Shown here: positions 1 to 12,123 of the stretch, one piece after another | Layout of the letters: each line of letters begins with the position of its first letter | Position numbering within the stretch: the stretch's first letter is position 1 | Assembly: GCA_048940645.1 (NCBI GenBank) | Contig: JBHLOI010000004.1 | Location: 27,966 to 91,965, forward strand | DNA: 64,000 bases | Direction of reading: 5' to 3' | From: Promethearchaeota archaeon | GTDB lineage: Archaea > Asgardarchaeota > Lokiarchaeia > Sigyniarchaeales > SOKP01 | Program-made: the position numbers and the translations under genes | The notes under the pieces: generated by a model | Database searches by the model: none | The model's input: only the letters and a program-made list of their open reading frames with translations | Told to the model about the DNA's origin: nothing

Positions 1-208
1 TCTCTTTTAACGCGTTTATTATAGTTATTCTTTCTTTATTTCCCAAAGCATTTAAAAAAGCTAAAATTGAATTTAATTTCTCATCAAATCTTAAATTTTT
101 TCCTAATTGTTGTAAATTTTTAAAATATTTGTCGCTATCAAAACATTCGTCACAACTACAAAGCATTTCTTTGATTTCAGATTCCCGATCAATTTTTATA
201 AAAATCAC
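1..208 (-). CDS. ArsR/SmtB-family winged-helix regulator, N-terminal part only (gene runs off the window start)
   Basis: The minus-strand frame from GTG 208 (or ATG 166) reads ..MLCSCDECFDSDKYFKNLQQLGKNLRFDEKLNSILAFLNALGNKERITIINALKE. The LxALGNxxRlxIlxxL stretch is typical of ArsR-family HTH proteins. It is divergent from the ars-type genes downstream. It is absent from the supplied ORF track because it is truncated. Confidence 0.5.
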   Translation of the reverse strand, partial: MIFIKIDRESEIKEMLCSCDECFDSDKYFKNLQQLGKNLRFDEKLNSILAFLNALGNKERITIINALKE

Positions 209-357
209 CTATTATAGGTAATAACCTTCTTCATTATATTAGAAGCTATTAAATTATAAAAATTTTATTCAAATCGAGTCATCTAGATTCACATCGAAAT
301 CTTTTTATTTGAAACATTCTATTAATATCTTAAGCTCTAACCATATAGAATTCATTA

Positions 358-1110
358 ATGAATAAAATGGAAAACAATAAAAAACTAAAGATTGGAATAA
401 TTTCAGACGGTAAGTACGGAGATAGAGCATATGAAAATATAAAAAAGAAATTTGAAACCCGCTGGATACTCCTCCCAGAGATACCACAAAACGTTATATT
501 AGATAATGAGTATAATTTTGAAATTCCTGAATGTGACCTTTATATTTCATATATTAGACACCCAGATATAATGCTGCAGTTAGCAGAACTTCAAAAACCA
601 TTGATTTTAGGGATACTTCCGGGAATTGGGTTATATTTACAAGCCAGAAAAATAAATCCTAAAGTTATATCTGCTCCTACTATGTGTTCATTGGAAAATA
701 ATACTGGGATTCCTGAAATTGACCTATTTACTAGTTTTTTTGGCCGACCTATTTATCAGGTTAATATAAATGAAGATAGGGTTATTAATAGGGTTGAAGT
801 ACGCCGTTCTTCACTATGTGGGTCTTCTGAAGCTGGAGCGAAATACCTACTGAATAAAACTTTCAATAAAGAAAATCTTCAAAATTTTGCTTTAAGTGTT
901 TGTTATGAATGTCGTGCTCCTCGTTTTGGGCATACATGTGATAAAGAAGTAGCGGGAATTATTCATTTGGTTTCAATTTTTGAGAGTATACCTAATGAAA
1001 TTTCAAATAAATTTGATAAAAATTCGCAATCCTTTATTGAAGATATTGGAAAGGAATATAAAAGAAGAAATAAAAATTCAGAGTTATTACTAAAAGAGGT
1101 AATATATTAA
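358..1110 (+). CDS. DUF166-family protein (archaeal conserved, function unknown)
   Basis: The N-terminus KIGIISDGKYGDRAYENIKKKF and the Cys/His cluster CYECRAPRFGHTCDKE resemble DUF166/COG1810 proteins as I remember them. The stop lies 3 nt before the ACR3 start. Confidence 0.5.
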   Translation: MNKMENNKKLKIGIISDGKYGDRAYENIKKKFETRWILLPEIPQNVILDNEYNFEIPECDLYISYIRHPDIMLQLAELQKPLILGILPGIGLYLQARKINPKVISAPTMCSLENNTGIPEIDLFTSFFGRPIYQVNINEDRVINRVEVRRSSLCGSSEAGAKYLLNKTFNKENLQNFALSVCYECRAPRFGHTCDKEVAGIIHLVSIFESIPNEISNKFDKNSQSFIEDIGKEYKRRNKNSELLLKEVIY

Positions 1111-1113
1111 ATT

Positions 1114-2193
1114 ATGCAAGAAGGAGAATTAAATGAAGCTGGAAAGGAAGCTTTAGACACTATCGAAGTTAAGGAGGAAAAGGGTAAAGAAATTAGTTTT
1201 TTTGAAAAATTCCTTCCTCTTTGGGTGGCTTTATGCATCTTTATAGGAATTTTGTTATCACAGATTTTTCCGGGGATAAGTATAGCGATTGAAGCTTTTA
1301 AAATTGGTGAGATTTCTATACCAATTGGAATTTGTTTATTCTTAATGATGTATCCGGCAATGTTAAATCTACAAACTTCTGAATTAAAAAAATTGGGTAG
1401 AGATCCTAAGCCAATTATCTTAACAATAATATCTAATTGGCTCATTGCTCCTTTTGTGGGTTTAGCAATGGTTAGGTTATTTTTACAAGGAAATCCGCAG
1501 TTATCAGTTGCTATAATTTTACTTTCAAGTTCACCTTGTACTGCTATGGTTCTCGTCTGGGGCTGGATGGCAAAAGGCAATCAAGAACAGAATGTAATAA
1601 ATACCAGCTTAAATACAATTACAATCATATTTGGTTATGCTCCTATGGTAACATTATTAACAGGTATTCAAGCCATACCAGTTGATTGGATTCTTCTGTT
1701 AATATCAACATTTGTTTTTATCGGGCTTCCTCTAGTATTTGGAATAGTAAGTAAAAGATTATTAATTTCTTCTAAAGGAGAAAAATGGTTTAATAACACT
1801 TATCGACCAATCGTAGGAAAAGTTTCCATAGTAGCCTTATTAACAACATTAATAGTACTTTTTTCATTGAATGGAAATGTTATGATCAATCATCCGGATT
1901 TATTGCTACTTGTTTCAATTCCACTCCTATTAGGATTTCTAATCGTAGTTGGTTATAACATTTTAATTACTAAACTTTTCAAGTTGAAGTACAAAGAAGC
2001 TGTAATTACTGTCATTATTGGATCTTCTAGCCATTTTGAAATCGCGATTGCTACTGCTATCGCTATGTATGGAATTGGTTCATTTGCTGCTTTGGGTACA
2101 ACAATGGGTTTATTTTGGGAGGTTCCAGTAATGTTATCGATAGTCTATCTTGGAAGATATCTAAAAAAACGTGGATTTTGGAAATCTGAATAA
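1114..2193 (+). CDS. acr3: ACR3-family arsenite efflux permease
   Basis: It is a polytopic membrane protein with ACR3 hallmark blocks: FFEKFLPLWV, MMYPAML, and SSSPCTAMVLVW with the conserved Cys-containing helix. It sits in an ars context. Confidence 0.9.
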   Translation: MQEGELNEAGKEALDTIEVKEEKGKEISFFEKFLPLWVALCIFIGILLSQIFPGISIAIEAFKIGEISIPIGICLFLMMYPAMLNLQTSELKKLGRDPKPIILTIISNWLIAPFVGLAMVRLFLQGNPQLSVAIILLSSSPCTAMVLVWGWMAKGNQEQNVINTSLNTITIIFGYAPMVTLLTGIQAIPVDWILLLISTFVFIGLPLVFGIVSKRLLISSKGEKWFNNTYRPIVGKVSIVALLTTLIVLFSLNGNVMINHPDLLLLVSIPLLLGFLIVVGYNILITKLFKLKYKEAVITVIIGSSSHFEIAIATAIAMYGIGSFAALGTTMGLFWEVPVMLSIVYLGRYLKKRGFWKSE

Positions 2194-2226
2194 TTTAAAA
2201 TTTAATTATTATTAGGTGAGAAATTA

Positions 2227-3891
2227 ATGGCCGTCGTGTATATGCGAAAATTGGAGCAAGAACCAGAGACGTATGACTCAGAGTTTACTACCCTAACAAA
2301 GGGAGTAAATATGGAAGTTCAAGATTGGATTCTTAATCGAATAAATTCTTCAGAGTCAATATTAGATGTTGGTTGTGGAACTGGTGCCCTTTCAGCTAAA
2401 CTTGCGTTGAAAGGAAACGATGTTGTTGCCATTGATAATAATTTTCAAATGATTAATTATGCTATGCAAAATTACCCTCAAAAAGAAAATTTACATTTAT
2501 TATTTCAAATAGGATCGTTCTCTAACCTCCAAGCCGAGCACCATTCGAAAGACATAATAGTGAGTACATTCATGTTATCAGAATTACGACCATTTGAGCA
2601 ACAAATTTTCCTTCGAAATGCATGGAAAGCATTAAAACCAGAGGGGCGATTAATTATAGCTGCAGAGTTTATCCCTTCTGGATTTTGGAAACTAATTTTT
2701 AAAATTAAGAGATGGCGGTATAAAAAAAAGCTTAGAAGACTTCGATTAAGAAGTACTTTTCTATTGAAATGGTTTTTTAATTATCTAGAACCGATAGGAT
2801 TTAAAATCATTGCTCAAAAAAAATGGAAACATGGTGCTATTCAGGTAATGGAACTAAAAAAAATAAATTTCACCCAAACTGAGGAGCCTGGTTATTATCG
2901 TCCTATACCAAAAAAATTTAAGGGAGTGCGTTCCCAATTAAGGATTTACCGATGCATTTTTACTGGACAAGTTGATCATGTTCCTATTGAACCAGGAATT
3001 TACCAAGCTGGTAAGCCTGATAAAAATTCTCCGATTACTGTTACAGCTAATTATGAGTATACTTACATTAAAGTGATGCGAGATTTAAAAGGTATTGATG
3101 CATGGGTATTATGTGTGGATTCTAATGGGATTAATGTATGGTGTGCCGCTCGTGGTAGCAACTTTGGCAATGCACAACTACTTGAAGCAATAGAAGCAAC
3201 CGGCATTCAAAATTATACAAATAAAAAAACCTTAATACTCCCTCAACTCTCTGCTGGGGGAGTAGCTATTCCAGATTTACCAATAAATTCAGAACAGTTC
3301 CCATTTAAAGTAAAATACGGTCCAATTTGGTCGAAACATATACCAACCTACTTAAAGAATCAACCTTCTAAAAAACCAGAAAAAATGAGGCTTGCCAAAT
3401 TTACAATACCTCATCGCATTCGCGCTGGAATAACGCATACAACATTCTTATTCCGTAAAATATTCATCTTACCTATAATAGCTTTATTAATGCTATTTTT
3501 AGGCCTATACATCTTTACAGTTTTTGATAAATTATGGTGGATTGGTGAACTGTGTATCTGGATTTTATTCGCAAATGTGATCATATTTTTCTTATTTCCA
3601 CTTTCTAAATTTACTCAAAAATTTGTAAATAAAGGATTTTTCTTTGGATTTATTAATATAGTTATTTTAGGGGGATTGACATGGTTAATTCATCGTTCTA
3701 TTTTTTATACATTGATTAATTTACCTTTTTTCTTTTGGATCACTTTCTTTTCAACGATGTCATTTAGTGGCTACACAATGGCAACAAGTCCAAGAAAAAT
3801 TGAAAATGAATATCCAATTTTTAAAAAATTAAATAAAATTTTATTAATAATAAGTTTGGTTTCTTTAGCAATTGGAATTATATTTTATTAA
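2227..3891 (+). CDS. Fusion protein: class I SAM-dependent methyltransferase + HgcA-like corrinoid-binding domain + C-terminal multi-TM domain
   Basis: Residues 1-215 carry Rossmann MTase motifs (ILDVGCGTG, VVAIDNN, LKPEGRLIIA). Residues 235-375 align by eye block-for-block with HgcA: PGIYQAGKPDKNSPITVTANYEYTY, GIDAWVLCVDSNGINVWCAARGSNFG, LILPQLSAGGVA. The cap-helix Cys is residue 306 (nt 3142..3144). Residues 400-554 contain several hydrophobic helices, as in HgcA. Confidence 0.8.
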   Translation: MAVVYMRKLEQEPETYDSEFTTLTKGVNMEVQDWILNRINSSESILDVGCGTGALSAKLALKGNDVVAIDNNFQMINYAMQNYPQKENLHLLFQIGSFSNLQAEHHSKDIIVSTFMLSELRPFEQQIFLRNAWKALKPEGRLIIAAEFIPSGFWKLIFKIKRWRYKKKLRRLRLRSTFLLKWFFNYLEPIGFKIIAQKKWKHGAIQVMELKKINFTQTEEPGYYRPIPKKFKGVRSQLRIYRCIFTGQVDHVPIEPGIYQAGKPDKNSPITVTANYEYTYIKVMRDLKGIDAWVLCVDSNGINVWCAARGSNFGNAQLLEAIEATGIQNYTNKKTLILPQLSAGGVAIPDLPINSEQFPFKVKYGPIWSKHIPTYLKNQPSKKPEKMRLAKFTIPHRIRAGITHTTFLFRKIFILPIIALLMLFLGLYIFTVFDKLWWIGELCIWILFANVIIFFLFPLSKFTQKFVNKGFFFGFINIVILGGLTWLIHRSIFYTLINLPFFFWITFFSTMSFSGYTMATSPRKIENEYPIFKKLNKILLIISLVSLAIGIIFY

Positions 3892-3938
3892 AATAATAAA
3901 AAAAATTAAAAAGTATAAAAAGATAGGAGGTTATAAAG

Positions 3939-4253
3939 ATGACAGAAATAGATTTTAAAACTTTTAATTTTACCGAAATCATAAAGAATATTCGAATATT
4001 TATTGATCGAGATGCTTGTACTGGATGTGGATTGTGTGGAGAGATATGTCCTTTTGGATTACCTCAACCTAGCACTAATGGAAAATTTGAAATAACAAAC
4101 CCAGATCTTTGCACAGAATGTAGCGCTTGTAAAAGAAATTGTCCAACTCAAGCCATTATCATGCAAGAACAAGCGGGATGTGGATGTTTGTGGAATGTTA
4201 GGAATAGAGTAAAAAGCTCAAATCAATCGAATCAATCGTGTAATTGTGGGTAA
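3939..4253 (+). CDS. HgcB-like 2x[4Fe-4S] ferredoxin with Cys-rich C-terminal tail
   Basis: It has two CX2CX2CX3CP motifs (CTGCGLCGEICP, CTECSACKRNCP), followed by GCGC and a terminal CNCG. The order and spacing resemble HgcB (C-x-ECGAC-x-x-NCP plus a C-terminal Cys pair). It lies immediately downstream of the HgcA-like gene and has a GGAGG RBS. Confidence 0.75.
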   Translation: MTEIDFKTFNFTEIIKNIRIFIDRDACTGCGLCGEICPFGLPQPSTNGKFEITNPDLCTECSACKRNCPTQAIIMQEQAGCGCLWNVRNRVKSSNQSNQSCNCG

Positions 4254-4271
4254 AATAGTTGGTTAATAATC

Positions 4272-4544
4272 ATGAAACAAAATAATAAATTAGAAGTTGA
4301 TATTTACGTTCCATTAGATGCATGTGCCTGTGAATGGGATAAGTTTATGAATCGGGTTTTTATAGTTTTAACACCTTATATAAAATACATTAATTATAAT
4401 ACGAAAAATCTTAATTCGGAGGAAGCAAGAAACCTAGATTTACATGGAAATACAATTGTTGTTGACAATAAGAAAAAGTATACTGCTTCCTATTCATTAA
4501 AAAAAGATTTACCCAATTTACTAAGAGAAAAAGGTTTGATTTAA
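4272..4544 (+). CDS. Small Cys-containing protein, possibly thioredoxin-fold/ArsD-like (hypothesis)
   Basis: The 90 aa protein has a beta-strand-like VDIYVPLDACACEWDKF at the N-terminus and ..NTIVVDNKKKYTASYSLKKDLPNLLREKGL at the C-terminus. This layout is reminiscent of ArsD and small thioredoxin-fold proteins. I see no strong motif match. Confidence 0.35.
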   Translation: MKQNNKLEVDIYVPLDACACEWDKFMNRVFIVLTPYIKYINYNTKNLNSEEARNLDLHGNTIVVDNKKKYTASYSLKKDLPNLLREKGLI

Positions 4545-4685
4545 GCAAATTTATTAAATTGGGGTGGTCAAAAAATTAAAAAAATAGAATTTGAAATTAG
4601 TATTCCAATAAAAGGACTCCAGCAAGGTAAAAAATATACACTTAATGTCGAAGATGATACTACCTTCATAGAAACATTAGCATTA

Positions 4686-4931
4686 GTGGATAAAATCGAG
4701 ATGATAGAGACCAAGACCAGTATTTTTCCAGTGTATGAAGGCTATATTCATAGTTATCTTCAGCTTTTTATAAATCTTGAAGAAGCTTCAATATACGATG
4801 ATGTTGGAGTGTATGCATATGCGCCTGATGACCATGGAATTATGCGAAAATTTAATCCTATTAGGGAAAATATTGAATTTAATCTATATCCTGATAGTTT
4901 GATTCAATTACAACCAGATGTAGGATGTTGA
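4686..4931 (+). CDS. Hypothetical small protein (true start probably upstream of the annotated GTG)
   Basis: The frame is open from 4545 and is the same frame as the preceding ORF. The upstream segment reads protein-like (KIKKIEFEISIPIKGLQQGKKYTLNVEDDTTFIETLALV). The protein ends ..LQPDVGC. Confidence 0.35.
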   Translation: MDKIEMIETKTSIFPVYEGYIHSYLQLFINLEEASIYDDVGVYAYAPDDHGIMRKFNPIRENIEFNLYPDSLIQLQPDVGC

Positions 4932-5185
4932 TGAGAAAAGGTGAAAGAAAGAGTGGATAATGAAACACTCAAAATAAAACTTAGGCAAAAATATGGCAAA
5001 AATAATAAATATTTTCTCCATTATTTTCAAATTTAATTTTTTGGATGAAATCTTTCAAGAAATAGTAGTGAAAGATTGACAAAGGGATTGCTTCCTATAT
5101 ATTATAAGAATAAAAATTAAAATTATTAATCATCATTAAAAAAAAAAGTAAATAATTCTTGAAAATATAAAAGCAACTATTATCA

Positions 5186-5617
5186 ATGGAGAAATCAAAA
5201 GTAATTTTTCTTTGCACTGAAAATTCGGTACGTAGTCAAATGGCAGAAGCATTTCTTAAAAAACAGGCAGGTGAGCATTTTGAAGTATATAGTGCTGGGT
5301 TCGATCCTCAACCTATACATCCTTTTACAATAAAAGTAATGGAAGAATTAGACTATGATTTAAAAGATCAATATTCTAAAGAATTAAAGGAATTCCTAGG
5401 AAAAGTACACTTCGAGATTGTTATAACTGTGTGTGAAAAAGCTGAAAAGACCTGTCCTATTATTCCTGGAGTAAGTACTAGGTTATTTTGGTCATTTGAA
5501 GACCCTGCTGCATTTGAAGGAACAAGACAGGAAAAACTGGATAAATTTCGACAAGTCAGAGACCAAATTTATGAACAAATTCAAGTTTGGTTAAAAAATA
5601 GAGCAATTTTAAAGTAA
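5186..5617 (+). CDS. arsC: Arsenate reductase, low-molecular-weight phosphotyrosine-phosphatase family
   Basis: The N-terminal P-loop VIFLCTENSVRSQMAEAF is a CX5R(S) motif. Downstream Cys residues (VCEKAEKTCP) are typical of thioredoxin-coupled ArsC. Confidence 0.85.
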   Translation: MEKSKVIFLCTENSVRSQMAEAFLKKQAGEHFEVYSAGFDPQPIHPFTIKVMEELDYDLKDQYSKELKEFLGKVHFEIVITVCEKAEKTCPIIPGVSTRLFWSFEDPAAFEGTRQEKLDKFRQVRDQIYEQIQVWLKNRAILK

Positions 5618-6861: not shown

Positions 6862-8337
6862 ATGGAACGAACAACAAAAAGAATACTTGCAATAGTTCTT
6901 GTAATAGCAATCGCAGGTGCTGGAATAGGCATCGGTGTTTGGTATTTAACCCAAGAGGTTGGAGAAGCAGGATGGGAGACCCCAGGAGTTTCAGGTGTAC
7001 CAAGCGATAACTGGATTAGATGTGGATATCTTGGTGGCTTGAGAGGGATACAAGGTGATGGAGGTTGGAAAGGTGCTTGGTTAGCGGCATATGATATAAA
7101 TACTAAAGATGGTGGTATTCAGGTTGGCAATGAGACATATTACATAGCAGTTAAGGCACGAGATACTAATGAACATGATCCTCAAATACCTATCTCTACA
7201 GGGTTGGCTGCAGCTGAGCAAATGATATACGTGGATGAAGCAAGATACCTCTTTGGTGGATTTAGAACAGAGGTCACAAGAGCGATTGTAGAAGTAGCAA
7301 TGGATGAAGACTTAATTTATTATGGTTGCGGTGCTTCTACAGATGAATTTTGTGTTAATGTGTACAACAACTATCCAAGATATAAATCTTACTTCAGGCA
7401 AACTCCCATTTCAAGTACTTTCCTCGCATTAGAAATAATTAAAGGCTTTTGTCATGTAATAAATGTAATGGAAGCTAACTTGTCAAGAAGAGTAAACAAA
7501 ATTGCAATCTTTCGAGAACAGCTAGATTGGACTGTAGGTATGTCAGGTCTTTTAAATGGTCTCGCCGCTGCTGTTAATTACACTGTAGTATACGAAGTAG
7601 CTTATGACATTGCTAACCCTGATTTTGAGACATATTGGGATCTAGCTGAGGCGGCAGGTGCTCAAATAGTTGTACCCGTTGTTTCGGGAGATACAGGAAT
7701 AACCATGATGAAACAATATGGAATTACGAGACCTCACTGTCTTGTATTTGGTATTGATGTTGAAGGGCAGATGACCACCTATTGGTCGACTACGGGTGGA
7801 GCTTGTAATTACCAAATCTTTTTAACAACTCTTACTCCTAATTGCCCCGTAACACCTTATTCCACAACATTTTACAATGATTATCTCACGAGGTATGGTA
7901 TTGGACCTACGATCTACACAGCACCAGGTACTTACGACGCGGTTAACACTTTAGCATGGGCAATTAACCAGTCTCAATCATTGGATGAGCTAGACATTAT
8001 TGCTCAACTAGAAACGTTAAATAGAAGTGCTGGGGTTTACCTTTCAGGTCCTAGAGCTGTAGCTGCCAGAAGATTGTCCTATACTCAAGTTGGTGGTGGA
8101 TTCCCTCCAAGCAACCCTACAGCGCATGATGTTGAAGAGGGCTGGCCATGGGGTTGTACCAGATTTGGTCAGTGGCAAGGTGGGACTATAGTATGTATAC
8201 CCACTGGAAATGGGACCTTATATACCCGTGGATATCCAGCTGGTCCATATGGAGATTTTTCAAATTTAGCTCTTGGAGTATATCCAAATTCATTAGCGAC
8301 TGGAAATATTTTCCTGCCATATTGGGGTATAAATTAG
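6862..8337 (+). CDS. ABC transporter substrate-binding protein, branched-chain amino acid (LivJ/Peripla_BP_6) type, membrane-anchored
   Basis: It has an N-terminal TM anchor (ILAIVLVIAIAGAGIGIGVWY) followed by a type-I periplasmic-binding-fold pattern (AAYDINTKDGGI..., GGFRTEVTRAIVEVA). It lies upstream of livHMGF-like genes. Confidence 0.8.
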   Translation: MERTTKRILAIVLVIAIAGAGIGIGVWYLTQEVGEAGWETPGVSGVPSDNWIRCGYLGGLRGIQGDGGWKGAWLAAYDINTKDGGIQVGNETYYIAVKARDTNEHDPQIPISTGLAAAEQMIYVDEARYLFGGFRTEVTRAIVEVAMDEDLIYYGCGASTDEFCVNVYNNYPRYKSYFRQTPISSTFLALEIIKGFCHVINVMEANLSRRVNKIAIFREQLDWTVGMSGLLNGLAAAVNYTVVYEVAYDIANPDFETYWDLAEAAGAQIVVPVVSGDTGITMMKQYGITRPHCLVFGIDVEGQMTTYWSTTGGACNYQIFLTTLTPNCPVTPYSTTFYNDYLTRYGIGPTIYTAPGTYDAVNTLAWAINQSQSLDELDIIAQLETLNRSAGVYLSGPRAVAARRLSYTQVGGGFPPSNPTAHDVEEGWPWGCTRFGQWQGGTIVCIPTGNGTLYTRGYPAGPYGDFSNLALGVYPNSLATGNIFLPYWGIN

Positions 8338-8374
8338 GAACTGCGAATATTTGAATATTTTAAAATATTAAGTC

Positions 8375-8385
8375 TTTTTTTTTTT
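8375..8385 (+). terminator. Oligo-T tract (T11) after the substrate-binding protein gene
   Basis: An 11-T run lies 38 nt after the stop codon and is followed by a ~140 nt AT-rich gap before livH. Archaeal RNAP terminates at oligo-T. Confidence 0.45.
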
Positions 8386-8525
8386 AATATTTGTGTATAA
8401 GTTTTTAGGAAAAATAGAATTATAGAAAAATTAGTACAAATTATAGATTAATTTTAAATATAATGAGGTAGAAATAACATAATAAAAATCAGAACAAAAT
8501 AACTTTATTTAAAGATTATTGAATA

Positions 8526-9578
8526 TTGAGGGATTGTTTTATTATGATAGTAGAATTAGAAAAAGATATGAAAGATAATGAAATCGTTAAAAAAACGAAA
8601 AAGTTGAGTAAAAGACTACAAATTACCTTAGGAACAGCTGGTATAATTGCAATTGTTATCATATTATTATCTTTAAGTTATTATTTTTTCAAGGTACCAG
8701 AGGGGTTACCTCAGATAATAATTTTTGGCACAACGCATGGAGCTATTATTTCCCTACTTGCAATCGGGCTCTCATTAGTGTATGGTGTAGGAGGAGTTAT
8801 GAACTTAGCTCATGGGGGATTCTATTTAATGTCAGGATATATTTTTTACTGGACGGTAACGGCTACGAAAGTATTCATGCCATTTGGGGGAATAATATTA
8901 GGTATAATTATAGTATTGATAGCTATAACGATTATTGGAGCTGCTTCATACCTCTTATTTATTAAACCTTTGATGAATTCTCCTATAGGTGTATTAATGG
9001 TTACATTTGCTATTGCTTATTTCTTTCAAGCATTGATTCTGCTGATAGTTCAAGTATCCCACCCATTATTAATGGATGAATTAATTCCAGGTAGTATTAC
9101 AATTTTTGACGTTACATTCGGCGCTCAAAATATCTTAATCATTATTCTTTCATTATCAATTGTAATCGGTGTTACAATATTTATTAGTAAAACTAAACTT
9201 GGGAAATCTATTAGAGCAGTTGCTCAAGATAGAGAGGCAGCAATGCTTATGGGTATAAATGCTGATAGAATCCTTATGTATGTTGTAATGATCTCTGCTT
9301 TTTTAACAGGTGTAGCAGCAATCCTCAATGTACCCAAAGAATATATATCACCCTATGTGGGTTGGGGCATTTTAGCAGAGTCATTTGCAGTTGTTGTTCT
9401 TGGAGGATTGGGAAGTTTACCTGGTAGTGTTGCTGGATCATTCATCCTTGGCTATGCAACTTCTATCTGTAATTATCTGATCGACCCCTCTTTTGCTGCT
9501 TTAATCCCTGGTATTGTGATCGTGGTAACCCTTGTACTAAGACCTCAGGGCTTATTTGGAAAAAAAGAAATTGATTAA
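8526..9578 (+). CDS. livH: Branched-chain amino acid ABC transporter permease (LivH-type)
   Basis: It is a polytopic membrane protein with LivH-type blocks (LSLVYGVGGVMNLAHGGFYLMSGY, KLGKSIRAVAQDREAAMLMGIN). The start is uncertain (TTG 8526, ATG 8544 or ATG 8568). Confidence 0.85.
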   Translation: MRDCFIMIVELEKDMKDNEIVKKTKKLSKRLQITLGTAGIIAIVIILLSLSYYFFKVPEGLPQIIIFGTTHGAIISLLAIGLSLVYGVGGVMNLAHGGFYLMSGYIFYWTVTATKVFMPFGGIILGIIIVLIAITIIGAASYLLFIKPLMNSPIGVLMVTFAIAYFFQALILLIVQVSHPLLMDELIPGSITIFDVTFGAQNILIIILSLSIVIGVTIFISKTKLGKSIRAVAQDREAAMLMGINADRILMYVVMISAFLTGVAAILNVPKEYISPYVGWGILAESFAVVVLGGLGSLPGSVAGSFILGYATSICNYLIDPSFAALIPGIVIVVTLVLRPQGLFGKKEID

Positions 9579-9620
9579 TTTATTAAAAAGATAGTAATAA
9601 TTAAAGGTGTTTATATAAAA

Positions 9621-10646
9621 GTGTCAAAATTAAAGGAAATTATAGGAAATTACATTAGGATTAAAAGTAAACCTTCTCGTCGTCTAATATCTTGGGTAAA
9701 AACCTTTAAGGGTAGTTTAACATTACTCTGTTTACTTGGACTATTTGCTTTACCATTGCTTACTGATAATCCATATTATTTGGGAATATTTATTAATGCA
9801 GCGATTTTTTCAATTTTTGCTGCAAGCTGGAACTTTTTAGGGGGGTATACCGGACAAGTAAGTTTTGGACATGCAATATTTTTGGGCATGGGTGGTTATA
9901 TAACTGCATCTTTAGTTCGTTATTTTAATGTCGCATGGTCCATTTCACTTATTGTGGGTGGGCTCTTTTCTGTATTAATTGCCTTTTTCATTGGTATTAT
10001 TTGTTTACGATTAAAAGGCCCCTACTTAGCTTTAGGAACCATGGCTTTAGGTCTTTTTACAATGGCTTTATTCAATAATGAGTTACTGGGAACAGCTAGT
10101 GACTGGCTATTTTTCGGATCACAGGGAATTGATAGAGTCCCTCGCATCTCTAGAGATGTAGTAGAAATATTTTATGTTTATCTGATTATTATGATAGTTT
10201 CAGTTATAATAATGATTCTTATTGGTGATTCTAAAATGGGTACAATTTTCAAATCCATTCGAGATGATGATACTGGAGCCGAAGCCTCAGGTATTAATTT
10301 AACTAAATATAAAGTTATTGCATTCATGATAAGTGGCTTTTTTGCAGGAATTGCTGGAGGCCTTCTCGCTATGCAATCTAGGAATGTAGCTCCTGCATTT
10401 TTTCAGCCTCTTTATTCATTTTACGCAATAATTATGACTGCTATCGGAGGAATAGGTTTAATATCTGGATCAGTCCTTGGAGGCTTTATTTTCTTTGGGT
10501 TAGAAGCATTATTAAGTGACGTATGGGATCCAGTATTTTTATTTTCTATCATCTTAATTTTAATCATTCGATTTGCTGAAATGGGACTTTTAAGACCTGT
10601 CTTAGAACACTTAAGAGATCTCTGGGATTTGGTATTAGGAAAATAA
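9621..10646 (+). CDS. livM: Branched-chain amino acid ABC transporter permease (LivM-type)
   Basis: It carries LivM-type blocks: GGYTGQVSFGHAIFLGMGGY, LKGPYLALGTMALG, IRDDDTGAEASGINLTKYK. Confidence 0.85.
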   Translation: MSKLKEIIGNYIRIKSKPSRRLISWVKTFKGSLTLLCLLGLFALPLLTDNPYYLGIFINAAIFSIFAASWNFLGGYTGQVSFGHAIFLGMGGYITASLVRYFNVAWSISLIVGGLFSVLIAFFIGIICLRLKGPYLALGTMALGLFTMALFNNELLGTASDWLFFGSQGIDRVPRISRDVVEIFYVYLIIMIVSVIIMILIGDSKMGTIFKSIRDDDTGAEASGINLTKYKVIAFMISGFFAGIAGGLLAMQSRNVAPAFFQPLYSFYAIIMTAIGGIGLISGSVLGGFIFFGLEALLSDVWDPVFLFSIILILIIRFAEMGLLRPVLEHLRDLWDLVLGK

Positions 10647-10673
10647 AAAAAAATATAATAATAATTAAAAAAT

Positions 10674-11426
10674 GTGAATTATAATATGGGAATAATTTTA
10701 GAAGTAAAGAATCTAACAAAAAAATTTGGCGGATTAACAGCGGTTAATGATTTTAGTTTTGAAATTCATCAAGGAGAATTTCTTGGACTAATTGGTCCAA
10801 ATGGTGCTGGAAAAACTACTGTTTTTAATTTAATATCTGGTTTTGAAAAGCCAAGTGCGGGGACTATTAGATTTGATGGTATTGATATCACAGGTAAAAA
10901 ACCTCATAAAATTGTAAATTTTGGAATCGCTCGAACCTTTCAACTAGTTAGATCGTTTAAATTTCTCAATCTGCTTGATAATGTTACCGTTTCATGTCTT
11001 TCTCCTAGAGGAAAAAAAGTTGCAAGACATGTTGGATTTGAGGAATATGCTAGTTCAATTCTTGCTTCTGTTGGACTTGTAGATAGAGCTAGAATCCCTC
11101 CTGTTATTTTACCGCATGGTGATTTAAGGAAATTGCAAATTGGTAAAGCTGTTGGTACTAATCCTAAATTACTTCTTCTAGATGAACCATTTAGCGGTCT
11201 TACGCATGAAGAACAGGAAGTTATTACAGATTTAATTATAAAATTACATGATGATGGGGTAACCGTTTTTCTTACAGGACATGTGCTAAGAGAATTAATG
11301 CAGTTAGTCCCAAGAGTAATTGCTATGCATCAAGGTAAATTTATTGCTGAAGGTTCTCCATTAGAAGTCGCAAATAATAAAATAGTACTTGAAGCATATT
11401 TAGGGAGAGGTGAAGAATTTGCTTGA
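10674..11426 (+). CDS. livG: Branched-chain amino acid ABC transporter ATPase (LivG-type)
   Basis: It has Walker A GPNGAGKTT, a Q-loop, an ABC signature region and Walker B LLLLDEP. The N-terminal LxVxNLTKxFGGLxAVND is typical of LivG. Confidence 0.9.
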   Translation: MNYNMGIILEVKNLTKKFGGLTAVNDFSFEIHQGEFLGLIGPNGAGKTTVFNLISGFEKPSAGTIRFDGIDITGKKPHKIVNFGIARTFQLVRSFKFLNLLDNVTVSCLSPRGKKVARHVGFEEYASSILASVGLVDRARIPPVILPHGDLRKLQIGKAVGTNPKLLLLDEPFSGLTHEEQEVITDLIIKLHDDGVTVFLTGHVLRELMQLVPRVIAMHQGKFIAEGSPLEVANNKIVLEAYLGRGEEFA

Positions 11427-12123
11427 ATTAAAAAAAATTTATCATTATTATGGAAAAGCTAAATCTCTTGAAGAGATAAATTTAAAAGTGGAACAAAAAT
11501 CCTTAGATTCCGTTATAGGACCCAATGGTGCTGGAAAATCAACTCTTCTTAGAGTAATTTCCGGATTAGAAGAGCCTGATAGAGGTAAAATCATCTTCGA
11601 AGGAGTGAGAATTGATGAAGAAAAACCTTATAGAATTGCGAGAATGGGAATCGCCCATTGTCCAGAACGCCGAAGACTTTTTTATGATATGAGCGTTGAG
11701 GAAAATCTTAGCATGGGGGCATATTCACTAAAGGATAAATCAAAATTAAAGGGATTATTACAATTTATATTTGAAATTTTTCCTCGTCTTAAGGAAAGAA
11801 AGAAACAAAGAGCTGGAACTCTCAGTGGTGGTGAACAACAAATGCTTGCTATAGCACGTTCTCTTATGTCAAACCCAAAATTACTCTTAATGGATGAACC
11901 TTCGTTAGGACTTGCACCTAAAATTAAAAACAAAATATTTGAAGCCATCCAAAAAGTTAAAGAAGAAGGTACTACAACACTTTTAATTGAACAAGATGCT
12001 GTCTTAGCTATGGATATAGCAGATTATATTCATGTACTAGAAGAAGGAAAAATCGAAATGAGAGGTACAAAACAAGAATTAAATCGAGAACCTAGAATTA
12101 AACAAGTATATTTAGGGATTTAG
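11410..12123 (+). CDS. livF: Branched-chain amino acid ABC transporter ATPase (LivF-type)
   Basis: It has Walker A GPNGAGKST, signature LSGGEQQMLAIARSL and Walker B LLLMDEPSLGLAP. It overlaps livG by 17 nt. Confidence 0.9.
   Translation: MKNLLELKKIYHYYGKAKSLEEINLKVEQKSLDSVIGPNGAGKSTLLRVISGLEEPDRGKIIFEGVRIDEEKPYRIARMGIAHCPERRRLFYDMSVEENLSMGAYSLKDKSKLKGLLQFIFEIFPRLKERKKQRAGTLSGGEQQMLAIARSLMSNPKLLLMDEPSLGLAPKIKNKIFEAIQKVKEEGTTTLLIEQDAVLAMDIADYIHVLEEGKIEMRGTKQELNREPRIKQVYLGI

Follow-up and report, generated by a model that had tools for sequence, protein, structure and literature searches.

A putative metal(loid)-responsive methyl-transfer cassette built around a methyltransferase–HgcA-like fusion protein in Lokiarchaeia-type archaea

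We analysed a 64,000-nucleotide stretch of a Promethearchaeota archaeon genome (GenBank assembly GCA_048940645.1, contig JBHLOI010000004.1, positions 27,966 to 91,965; hereafter the window), the first 5,617 nucleotides of which place an arsenic regulator, an arsenite pump and an arsenate reductase-like gene around two unusual genes: one for an HgcA-like corrinoid protein fused to an S-adenosylmethionine (SAM)-dependent methyltransferase, the other for an HgcB-like ferredoxin. We propose that the locus encodes a metal(loid)-responsive module that passes a methyl group from SAM via a corrinoid to a thiophilic substrate, with arsenite as the leading candidate. This is the best explanation we can offer, and we hold it tentatively, giving it slightly less than an even chance. 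The arsenic context is genuine yet lineage-specific, and corrinoid-dependent methylation of a metalloid is a plausible proposal. The cassette itself consists of seven genes, six co-oriented and one a divergent ArsR. Every gene named in the original prediction, which had been made from the sequence alone, is present at the predicted coordinates; Pfam and NCBIfam profile matches and the open reading frames (ORFs) of the window give the following layout.

1–208, minus strand: ArsR/SmtB-family regulator, first 69 codons, reading off the window edge (PF01022 HTH_5, 58 bits)
209–357, no strand: putative divergent promoter region (alignment of eight orthologous intergenic regions)
358–1110, plus strand: DUF166 protein, 250 aa, first gene of the run (PF02593, E 5.6e-31)
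1114–2193, plus strand: ACR3-family arsenite efflux permease, 359 aa (TIGR00832, 274.7 bits; PF01758 SBF, E 2.6e-37)
2227–3891, plus strand: SAM-methyltransferase–HgcA-like–membrane fusion protein, 554 aa (NF043040, NF043039, NF040863, PF03599)
3939–4253, plus strand: HgcB-like 2x[4Fe-4S] ferredoxin, 104 aa (NF040864, 56.3 bits; Fer4 families)
4272–4544, plus strand: 90-aa CxC protein without a family match (ORF with homologues in Asgard sources)
4575–4931, plus strand: 118-aa protein with a probable ATT start and C-terminal DVGC (open frame, homology to the N-termini of relatives)
5186–5617, plus strand: low-molecular-weight protein tyrosine phosphatase (LMW-PTP) ArsC-like protein, 143 aa (PF01451, 71 bits; TIGR02691, 124.9 bits)

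The fusion protein comprises a CpaM-like class-I SAM methyltransferase domain (residues ~1–215), an HgcA/CFeSP-like corrinoid domain (~235–400) and a membrane domain (~404–554), and its profile matches in the PDB are SAM methyltransferases and the CFeSP large subunit. Residues 3–211 match the CpaM model NF043040, the best specific methyltransferase match of the protein, over model positions 2–215 of 216 with 140.7 bits (cut-off 180), and residues ~250–550 match NF043039, an HgcAB-like fusion protein, over model positions 14–249 of 350 with 177.2 bits (cut-off 285). The corrinoid-domain family PF03599 (CdhD) matches residues 238–343 with 58.5 bits, above its cut-off of 24.8. Against the HgcA model NF040863 the protein scores 168.2 bits (cut-off 275), compared with 419.2 for a canonical HgcA (locus L063; loci in the comparison set are denoted by L and a number). 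All specific NCBIfam equivalog scores for proteins of the locus fall under the curated cut-offs. Four hydrophobic segments were found in the membrane domain by Kyte–Doolittle analysis at a 1.6 cut-off (~404–437, 435–464, 466–489 and 531–554), and a fifth (~495–520) was recognised by eye. SAM motif I (GCGTG), D70, C306 and the cap helix GINVWCAARG are invariant in the Asgard alignment, and C306 aligns with the cysteine of the canonical WCAAGK, which is Cys93 of Pseudodesulfovibrio mercurii ND132. The high-stringency HgcA motif is N[VI]WC[AS][AGS]GK (PMC10087281); the window reads GINVWCAARGSN, and the RG in place of GK is invariant in copies from Loki- and Thorarchaeota. The methyltransferase domain is not an ArsM by profile score (NF008823, 35.8 bits, cut-off 263), and since its only cysteine is C50 within GCGTG, it is without the arsenic-binding cysteines of ArsM. 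A second conserved cysteine lies in the strand before the cap helix (VLC296VDS in Loki-type copies and VLVCDT in Thorarchaeota, where canonical HgcA has VLVLDT), and it could serve as a second ligand for the corrinoid or the substrate.

More than 120 full-length cluster representatives of this protein, at 64–91% identity, all derive from Asgard metagenome-assembled genomes (MAGs), labelled Promethearchaeota/Lokiarchaeota, Heimdall-, Hod-, Hermod- or Odinarchaeota. A profile search of 1.84 billion representatives clustered at 50% identity returned only about a dozen full-length clusters of the Asgard type and a similar number of bacterial clusters that match residues 1 to ~445, the remainder being canonical HgcA. 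In a neighbour-joining tree of the domain, Loki- and Thorarchaeota sequences form their own clade apart from canonical HgcA, bacterial methyltransferase fusions and CpaM-linked fused HgcAB; this tree and that of the fusion protein, described below, were built without bootstrap support or a CdhD outgroup and indicate groupings only.

The HgcB-like ferredoxin is encoded after the fusion protein in almost all Asgard loci, 47 nt downstream of it in the window. It carries two CX2CX2CX3CP motifs (C27/C30/C33/C37-P and C58/C61/C64/C68-P) and a cysteine-rich tail, GC81GC83...C101NC103G, which ends in CC-G in other Loki and Thor copies. It has CTECSA where the high-stringency HgcB motif is C(M/I)ECGA (PMC10087281) and scores 56.3 bits against NF040864, which has a cut-off of 99. 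The GCGC of the tail aligns with the canonical GVGC, which we mapped to Cys73 by our own residue count in one canonical sequence, and the C-terminal CxC or CC aligns with Cys94/95. The residues crucial to HgcAB are C93 of HgcA and C73, C94 and C95 of HgcB (PMC11588087). Judged by alignment, counterparts of all four are present in the Asgard pair, with C306 corresponding to C93, GCGC to C73, and the C-terminal CxC/CC to C94/95.

A methyltransferase accompanies HgcA relatives in two formats, either fused to HgcA, as in Asgard archaea and at least three bacterial groups, or as a separate CpaM beside a fused HgcAB (L047, L059, L164). This recurrence provides Rosetta-stone-type support for SAM-dependent corrinoid loading across the family, and the fusion fits as such a link because SAM has been shown to donate the methyl group to HgcAB, via methyl-Co(III) with Co–S(Cys) ligation from the conserved HgcA cysteine (PMC11588087). 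We hypothesise that the membrane-bound fusion protein and the ferredoxin form a self-contained methyl-transfer machine. SAM would be bound by the fused class-I domain and, by analogy with HgcAB, would methylate Co(I) in a corrinoid seated beneath the cap helix that carries Cys306; the ferredoxin would give electrons and use its GCGC and C-terminal cysteines to present a thiophilic metal(loid), to which the methyl group would then move. Arsenite would be the first candidate substrate and antimonite the next, and the product or unreacted As(III) would leave by diffusion or via ACR3. ACR3 and ArsC would provide ordinary arsenic detoxification. As a whole, the operon of this Lokiarchaeia-type archaeon would respond to a toxic metal or metalloid, with the divergent, thiolate-rich ArsR repressor controlling the genes for DUF166, ACR3, the fusion protein, the HgcB-like ferredoxin and the 90-aa and 118-aa proteins.

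The genomic context of the pair was compared across loci from GTDB species genomes and JGI metagenomes, comprising ~27 Loki-type, 7 Thorarchaeota, ~30 bacterial methyltransferase–HgcA-like and ~90 canonical hgcAB loci. The ArsR/ACR3/ArsC context of the HgcAB-like pair is kept in relatives, in line with the synteny check set out in the original prediction, and the gene order recurs in many independent Asgard assemblies. ACR3 lies directly upstream of the fusion gene in ~13 of the ~24 informative Loki-type loci (the window lineage, L084–86, L001, L008, L015, L087, L089, L090, L092, L093, L095, L167 and L169), is present but disrupted in L010 and L091, and is absent from L002, L003, L005–L007, L009, L012–L014, L088 and L097. 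Genes for the 90-aa and 118-aa proteins accompany the ACR3-type loci. In a neighbour-joining tree of the fusion protein the ars-free loci form one nested clade, and the context of ArsR, ACR3 and small proteins is spread over the remaining branches. One relative, on a 1.28-Mb Promethearchaeota contig, encodes a bona fide ArsM with a cysteine-rich N-terminus between ACR3 and the fusion gene (L015, 7800–8681; NF008823, 347 bits, cut-off 263). Another carries the complete cassette with its divergent ArsR in unrelated flanks, with radical SAM, KDD and cupin genes at one end and a glycosyltransferase gene at the other (L167). Canonical hgcAB also occur near ars genes in nine loci (L050, L051, L057, L068, L123, L127, L134, L142 and L153).

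The locus had been described as an arsenic-resistance island, a label that proved misleading. Its GC content matches that of the rest of the window (0.304 versus 0.312) and its flanks are syntenic in relatives, which argues for an old chromosomal operon and rules out a horizontally acquired island. Most cassette loci lie in the same neighbourhood, with SMC on one side and YdjM, a periplasmic-binding protein and ABC transporter genes on the other. In the window, the region past YdjM (6862–12123) contains the periplasmic-binding-protein gene and four more plus-strand ORFs. The first three correspond in the identical contig L081 to a pair of BPD_transp_2 permeases and an ABC ATPase, and a second ATPase is called in L084. 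These genes, too, are syntenic in relatives; seemingly unconnected with the cassette, they delimit it on the downstream side. An Rfam scan of the whole window detected no RNA family.

As first called, the genes are separated by 149 nt (the divergent region), 3, 33, 47, 18 and 141 nt, with 254 nt before ArsC. The 141-nt gap did not agree with the predicted spacing of 3 to ~50 nt up to position 4931, which does hold once the start of the second small ORF is revised. The frame of this ORF is open back to 4545, and KKIEFEISIPIKGLQQGKKYTLNVEDDTTFIETLALVDK, the residues encoded upstream, show homology with N-terminal sequence in relatives of 110–123 aa. The ATG of the L015 copy aligns with an ATT at 4575 that is also found in L084 and L010, and a GGTGG is found 8 nt before it. 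On these grounds the gene most probably spans 4575–4931 and encodes 118 aa; it was under-called at 76 aa from ATG 4701 in public annotations and at 81 aa from GTG 4686 by the ORF lister. This start closes the large gap to 30 nt and leaves internal gaps of 3–47 nt throughout. Shine–Dalgarno (SD)-like motifs precede ACR3 (GAGGT), the fusion gene, the HgcB-like gene and the 118-aa ORF, and none precedes DUF166 or ArsC. Because the gaps are tight and SD-like motifs occur at internal genes only, it appears probable that a single transcript covers everything from DUF166 to 4931, ACR3 and the pair included, with ArsC on a separate promoter.

The full ArsR, of which the window holds the beginning, has 133 aa in identical public contigs (GCA_048938325.1 and related Promethearchaeota archaeon MAGs; L081, 5581–5982). 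It combines the α3 motif DRCVCELE, containing a CVC site, with an N-terminal LCSCDEC cluster (C-x-C-x2-C) and, with its PF01022 match, has the predicted features of a thiolate-site winged helix–turn–helix repressor of an ars operon. The CVCE motif and N-terminal cysteines are kept in Thorarchaeota, where ArsR, the fusion gene and the HgcB-like gene form a compact co-oriented unit with gaps of 3–5 nt or a 4-nt overlap and varied flanks. An ArsR with the same cysteines adjoins the fusion gene in the ACR3-less Loki-type loci L002, L005 and L097. Since ArsR adjoins the pair in both of these settings, the pair itself, and not ACR3 alone, is persistently tied to thiolate-rich winged-helix sensors, and the regulator link is broader than the arsenic link. 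In the ars-free Loki clade a cysteine-rich MarR (CCPP, CNC, GCCPE) replaces ArsR upstream of the pair (L003, L007, L009 and L014; e.g. L009, 7210–7674). Loci of this clade additionally carry a divergent membrane protein of 195 aa that has a poly-Gly loop and matches no Pfam family.

The intergenic region 209–357 probably acts as a divergent archaeal promoter and may contain an operator. Alignment of the eight orthologous regions revealed two conserved AT-rich TATA-like modules (248–268 and 293–313), with an invariant ATCGA before the second and TCA(A/C)AT...ATTTGA around it. The only inverted repeat in 150–420, a 9-nt pair overlapping the ArsR start, was unconvincing as an operator. A scan for sigma-70 promoters and intrinsic terminators, which is unsuited to AT-rich archaeal DNA, was not meaningfully above shuffled expectation.

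As(III) and Sb(III) are favoured as substrates because of the likely co-transcription with ACR3, the CVC-type sensor, the ArsM inserted in the L015 cassette and the occurrence of canonical hgcAB near acr3, arsC and arsM. Several observations weigh against this proposal. About half of the Loki-type loci, all 6–7 from Thorarchaeota and all ~30 bacterial methyltransferase–HgcA-like loci are without ACR3 and ArsC, and the bacterial fusion genes adjoin either TetR or glycine-cleavage genes, in Chloroflexota those for the P and H proteins. Conservation of the cassette partly reflects vertical inheritance, because most cassette loci share the SMC...YdjM–PBP–ABC neighbourhood (PBP, periplasmic-binding protein). 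With a canonical ArsM beside the pair in L015, a second arsenite methylase looks redundant there. The ArsR site, with its N-terminal cysteines and α3 CVC, resembles CadC-type Cd/Pb/Zn sites as much as As(III) sites. In addition, organisms with related fused HgcAB do not methylate mercury (PMC10087281), so the chemistry of the family may differ from that of HgcAB.

Several of these points lend weight to an alternative in which the pair is unrelated to arsenic and stands beside ACR3 and ArsC through shared ArsR-type control and vertical inheritance. Its job might then be methylation of an organic or another inorganic acceptor, one-carbon or corrinoid metabolism, or reductive dehalogenation of halomethanes, and heterologous HgcAB has been reported to dechlorinate carbon tetrachloride (bioRxiv 10.64898/2026.04.26.720869). 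Some ArsR/SmtB members sense non-metals such as S-adenosylhomocysteine (SAH), and the unremarkable GC content of the locus agrees with such a history. The many ars-free family members, the L015 ArsM and the ambiguous CadC-like sensing site keep this alternative in play, and we regard it as unlikely but deserving of serious attention. Evidence on the other side includes the tight gaps and internal-only SD-like motifs, which favour a transcript from ACR3 into the pair, the cassette in unrelated flanks in L167 and the position of ArsM within the L015 cassette. Whatever the Asgard context, a cysteine-rich regulator is retained, be it an ArsR with CVC or a MarR with CC motifs; the metal-binding cysteines of HgcB are conserved, and canonical hgcAB repeatedly lie near ars genes, both in the nine loci above and in published data (PMC7438021). 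With regard to the Chloroflexota, the fusion genes of L026 and L029 follow two P-protein-like genes of the glycine-cleavage system and a 128-aa gene, as judged from sequence (upstream of the matches at 4406 and 8001, respectively); other Anaerolineae copies follow an apparent TetR regulator, and none has ars genes.

The methyl-transfer module that we prefer can also be cast in a stricter form, in which the pair is a dedicated ArsR-controlled arsenite/antimonite methyltransferase that uses SAM and a corrinoid, is independent of ArsM, occurs Asgard-wide and is aided by two Asgard-only small proteins and DUF166. We consider this version rather unlikely. Precedent for the chemistry comes from methanogens, in which several metal(loid)s, arsenic among them, become methylated as a by-product of metabolism that involves methylcobalamin and MtaA (Thomas 2011, as cited in PMC6205960). 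The original prediction had named ArsM as the known route of biological arsenic methylation, a statement that is incomplete in view of this second, corrinoid-mediated and ArsM-independent route. The methanogen route is a side reaction of methanogenesis that employs the TIM-barrel MtaA and coenzyme M; it is neither dedicated nor metal-regulated and involves neither SAM nor an HgcA-type Cys-ligated corrinoid.

Another possibility is that the pair is a functional HgcAB mercury methylase under ArsR-type control, as in ND132, in which the fused methyltransferase makes SAM loading more efficient. The likeness to HgcA and HgcB of P. mercurii ND132 is considerable, with a CFeSP-like corrinoid domain, a cap-helix cysteine, a C-terminal membrane domain consistent with the five transmembrane helices of HgcA, and an adjacent 2x[4Fe-4S] ferredoxin that has cysteines at the Cys73-aligned position and a C-terminal Cys pair equivalent to C94/95. 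SAM is the HgcAB donor (PMC11588087), ArsR-type regulators and ars genes are often near canonical hgcAB, and ArsR control of hgcAB is established, ArsR2 of ND132 both controlling these genes and responding to arsenic and SAH (bioRxiv 10.1101/2022.10.17.512643). However, the window proteins differ in the added N-terminal 215-aa SAM methyltransferase, in the cap helix (NVWCAARG rather than ...GK), in the extra cysteine of the VLCVDS strand, and in the CTECSA motif and GCGC...CNCG tail of the ferredoxin; NVWCAARG and CTECSA do not fit the published motifs (PMC10087281). They score far under the family cut-offs (168 bits against 275 for NF040863, where canonical HgcA has 419), belong to a separate Asgard clade, and are encoded at a locus with arsenic genes and no mer genes. 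Moreover, Asgard sequences were grouped with a fused-HgcAB clade (Lin et al. 2023; PMC10083202), whose tested members make no methylmercury. Mercury methylation by this pair therefore seems decidedly improbable to us. In about a quarter of the bacterial loci canonical hgcA is preceded by an ORF of ~120–185 aa without an NCBIfam match at E <=1e-10 (L043, L046, L049, L055, L057, L060, L063, L068 and L073; e.g. L063, 7468–7920).

The least probable of the explanations, to which we give very little credence, is an accessory redox or maturation module of the arsenic system, in which DUF166, the HgcB-like ferredoxin, the CxC protein and the corrinoid protein would serve as partners in electron transfer or thiol handling, for instance in the reduction of As(V) or organoarsenicals or in dealing with thio-arsenic species, without methylating a metalloid. 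It draws on the many cysteine-rich or Fe-S proteins of the cassette, on the unexplained thio-arsenic species formed by ND132, and on DUF166. The DUF166 gene ends 3 nt before ACR3, and its product has five invariant cysteines in an alignment of homologues (C110, C154, C182, C185 and C194, including C182-x2-C185). Its AlphaFold2 (AF2) model (pLDDT 89.1) has no significant neighbour among PDB folds (best E 0.04, TM-score <0.35); NAD(P)-binding enzymes and receiver domains make up most of the top structural matches, none of which is significant. A class-I methyltransferase with invariant GCGTG and D70, fused to a corrinoid domain and conserved at 64–91% identity, argues instead for a methyl-transfer core. 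DUF166 accompanies the cassette in L015, L084, L090, L095, L167 and L169, about half of the ACR3-type loci, and is missing from L008, L087, L089, L092 and L093; in L012 it lies on the opposite strand beside HgcB, without ACR3. A DUF166 homologue also occurs in a different ArsR-linked cluster (L168, 2268–11298), among four DGC-domain proteins (PF08859), one of them fused to GCV_H, and a ferredoxin and a transporter of the major facilitator superfamily (MFS); after these come a URO-D/MtaA-like methyltransferase and a B12-binding protein. A literature lead connecting DUF166 to arsenic concerned DUF1661, an unrelated family.

Searches of the 90-aa and 118-aa proteins against Pfam, NCBIfam and PDB sequences and profiles gave nothing usable. 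The 90-aa protein has 221 homologues, none with a Pfam domain, and all those with a taxon name are Asgard. P14, L15, C18, C20, E21 and W22 are invariant, and relatives have cysteine-rich N-terminal tails (SCCGS..CCG). Its AF2 model (pLDDT 84.8) shows a small thioredoxin-like alpha/beta fold with C18-x-C20 at the start of helix 1, and the best Foldseek matches in the PDB, protein disulphide isomerase and thioredoxins, are weak (E >=0.84, TM-score ~0.5). An identity as ArsD was rejected at an hhalign probability of 0.3% against R773 ArsD. A role of these accessory proteins as redox partners or metallochaperones would be speculation.

The permease scores 274.7 bits against TIGR00832, 8 bits under the 282.8 cut-off, passes for Pfam SBF, and contains the motifs PC142TAMV and HFE309IAIA, in which C142 and E309 are presumably the functional residues described for Acr3. 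In L010 (3303–7940; also L091, 1108–1179) ACR3 is split by an insertion of ~3.5 kb, such that its last ~23 codons adjoin the fusion gene; the insertion holds minus-strand ORFs of 852 and 202 aa without Pfam matches and may be an uncharacterised mobile element. The ArsC-like protein has the P-loop C10-X5-R16 and a pair, C83/C90, seven residues apart, which together resemble the Cys10/82/89-type triad and predict a thioredoxin-coupled LMW-PTP arsenate reductase. Its gene probably has its own promoter, the upstream region being AT-rich; besides the window lineage, only L087 and L010 have it in this place. Asgard lineages were reported to be without arsC1 and arsC2 in a cold-seep survey (PMC10060404), and the sub-threshold TIGR02691 score seen here (125 versus 174.3 bits) may explain why such genes are missed.

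Several parts of this system have been described before. Linkage of hgcAB with acr3, arsC, arsM and arsR is published for bacteria (PMC7438021; PMC10349881), as are acr3 and arsM in Asgard archaea (PMC10060404). What is new is the fused architecture and the cassette, which are Asgard-specific; the hgcAB–ars link itself, ArsR control, the SAM donor and pairs of CpaM with HgcAB-like proteins were already known. Within the library accessible to us, we found no paper on this methyltransferase–HgcA fusion or on this cassette, and searches on CpaM returned unrelated acronyms only. In the phylogeny that assigned Asgard sequences to the fused-hgcAB clade (PMC10083202), the first 327 columns of the alignment were cut for poor alignment, and an N-terminal methyltransferase is not mentioned.

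Among the nearest described systems are the pairs of CpaM and HgcAB-like proteins (NF043040 and NF043039; P. furiosus and others), in which a CpaM-like methyltransferase accompanies an HgcA paralogue lacking the GK; these two models are the best or near-best matches of the window domains. In those pairs, however, HgcA and the ferredoxin form one polypeptide and the methyltransferase stands apart (L047, L059), with the cap helix NVWCAA[AST]GG, whereas the window has a methyltransferase–HgcA fusion and a ferredoxin encoded by a gene of its own, and its scores (141 against 180 and 177 against 285 bits) place it outside that family. Both CX2CX2CX3CP motifs are complete in the Asgard ferredoxin, which also has the Cys tail, whereas the partners of the L047 type and of Chloroflexota have a degenerate first motif and no tail. 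Bacterial methyltransferase–HgcA-like fusions (Anaerolineae, Poribacteria and Desulfobacteraceae; L021–L039) share the order of methyltransferase, corrinoid and membrane domains followed by a small ferredoxin, but are only ~30% identical, have the cap helix NVWCAAGGG and TetR or glycine-cleavage neighbours with no ACR3 or ArsC nearby, and their methyltransferase domains pass the CpaM cut-off at 230–258 bits (L023, 258.5; L021, 229.6). Compared with classical ars operons (arsR-acr3-arsC, with or without arsM), the locus has the CVC ArsR, the Cys and Glu motifs of ACR3 and the LMW-PTP ArsC triad, and one relative, L015, has ArsM in the same position; it differs by five extra genes (those for DUF166, the fusion protein, the HgcB-like ferredoxin and the 90-aa and 118-aa proteins) and in that ArsC is confined to few lineages.

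What the HgcAB family natively does has been in question for a long time, and mercury methylation brings its carriers no known benefit. The locus described here makes the question testable, since it offers a defined cassette with a plausible inducer and substrate and with clear-cut point mutants. The presence of a methyltransferase fusion in several lineages lends independent support, from genomics, to the biochemical result of 2024 in which the HgcA corrinoid was found to be loaded by SAM. The locus also reveals under-annotated members of a metal(loid) regulon, namely the Asgard ArsC-like genes, the 118-aa gene with its ATT start and the families of DUF166 and of the 90-aa protein. Should the substrate be arsenic, Asgard-rich anoxic sediments would hold an unrecognised route to methylated arsenicals that arsM-based surveys miss. 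Were the pair a dedicated arsenite methyltransferase, metalloid detoxification would be the native role of one branch of the HgcAB family, and mercury methylation the side activity of a related branch.

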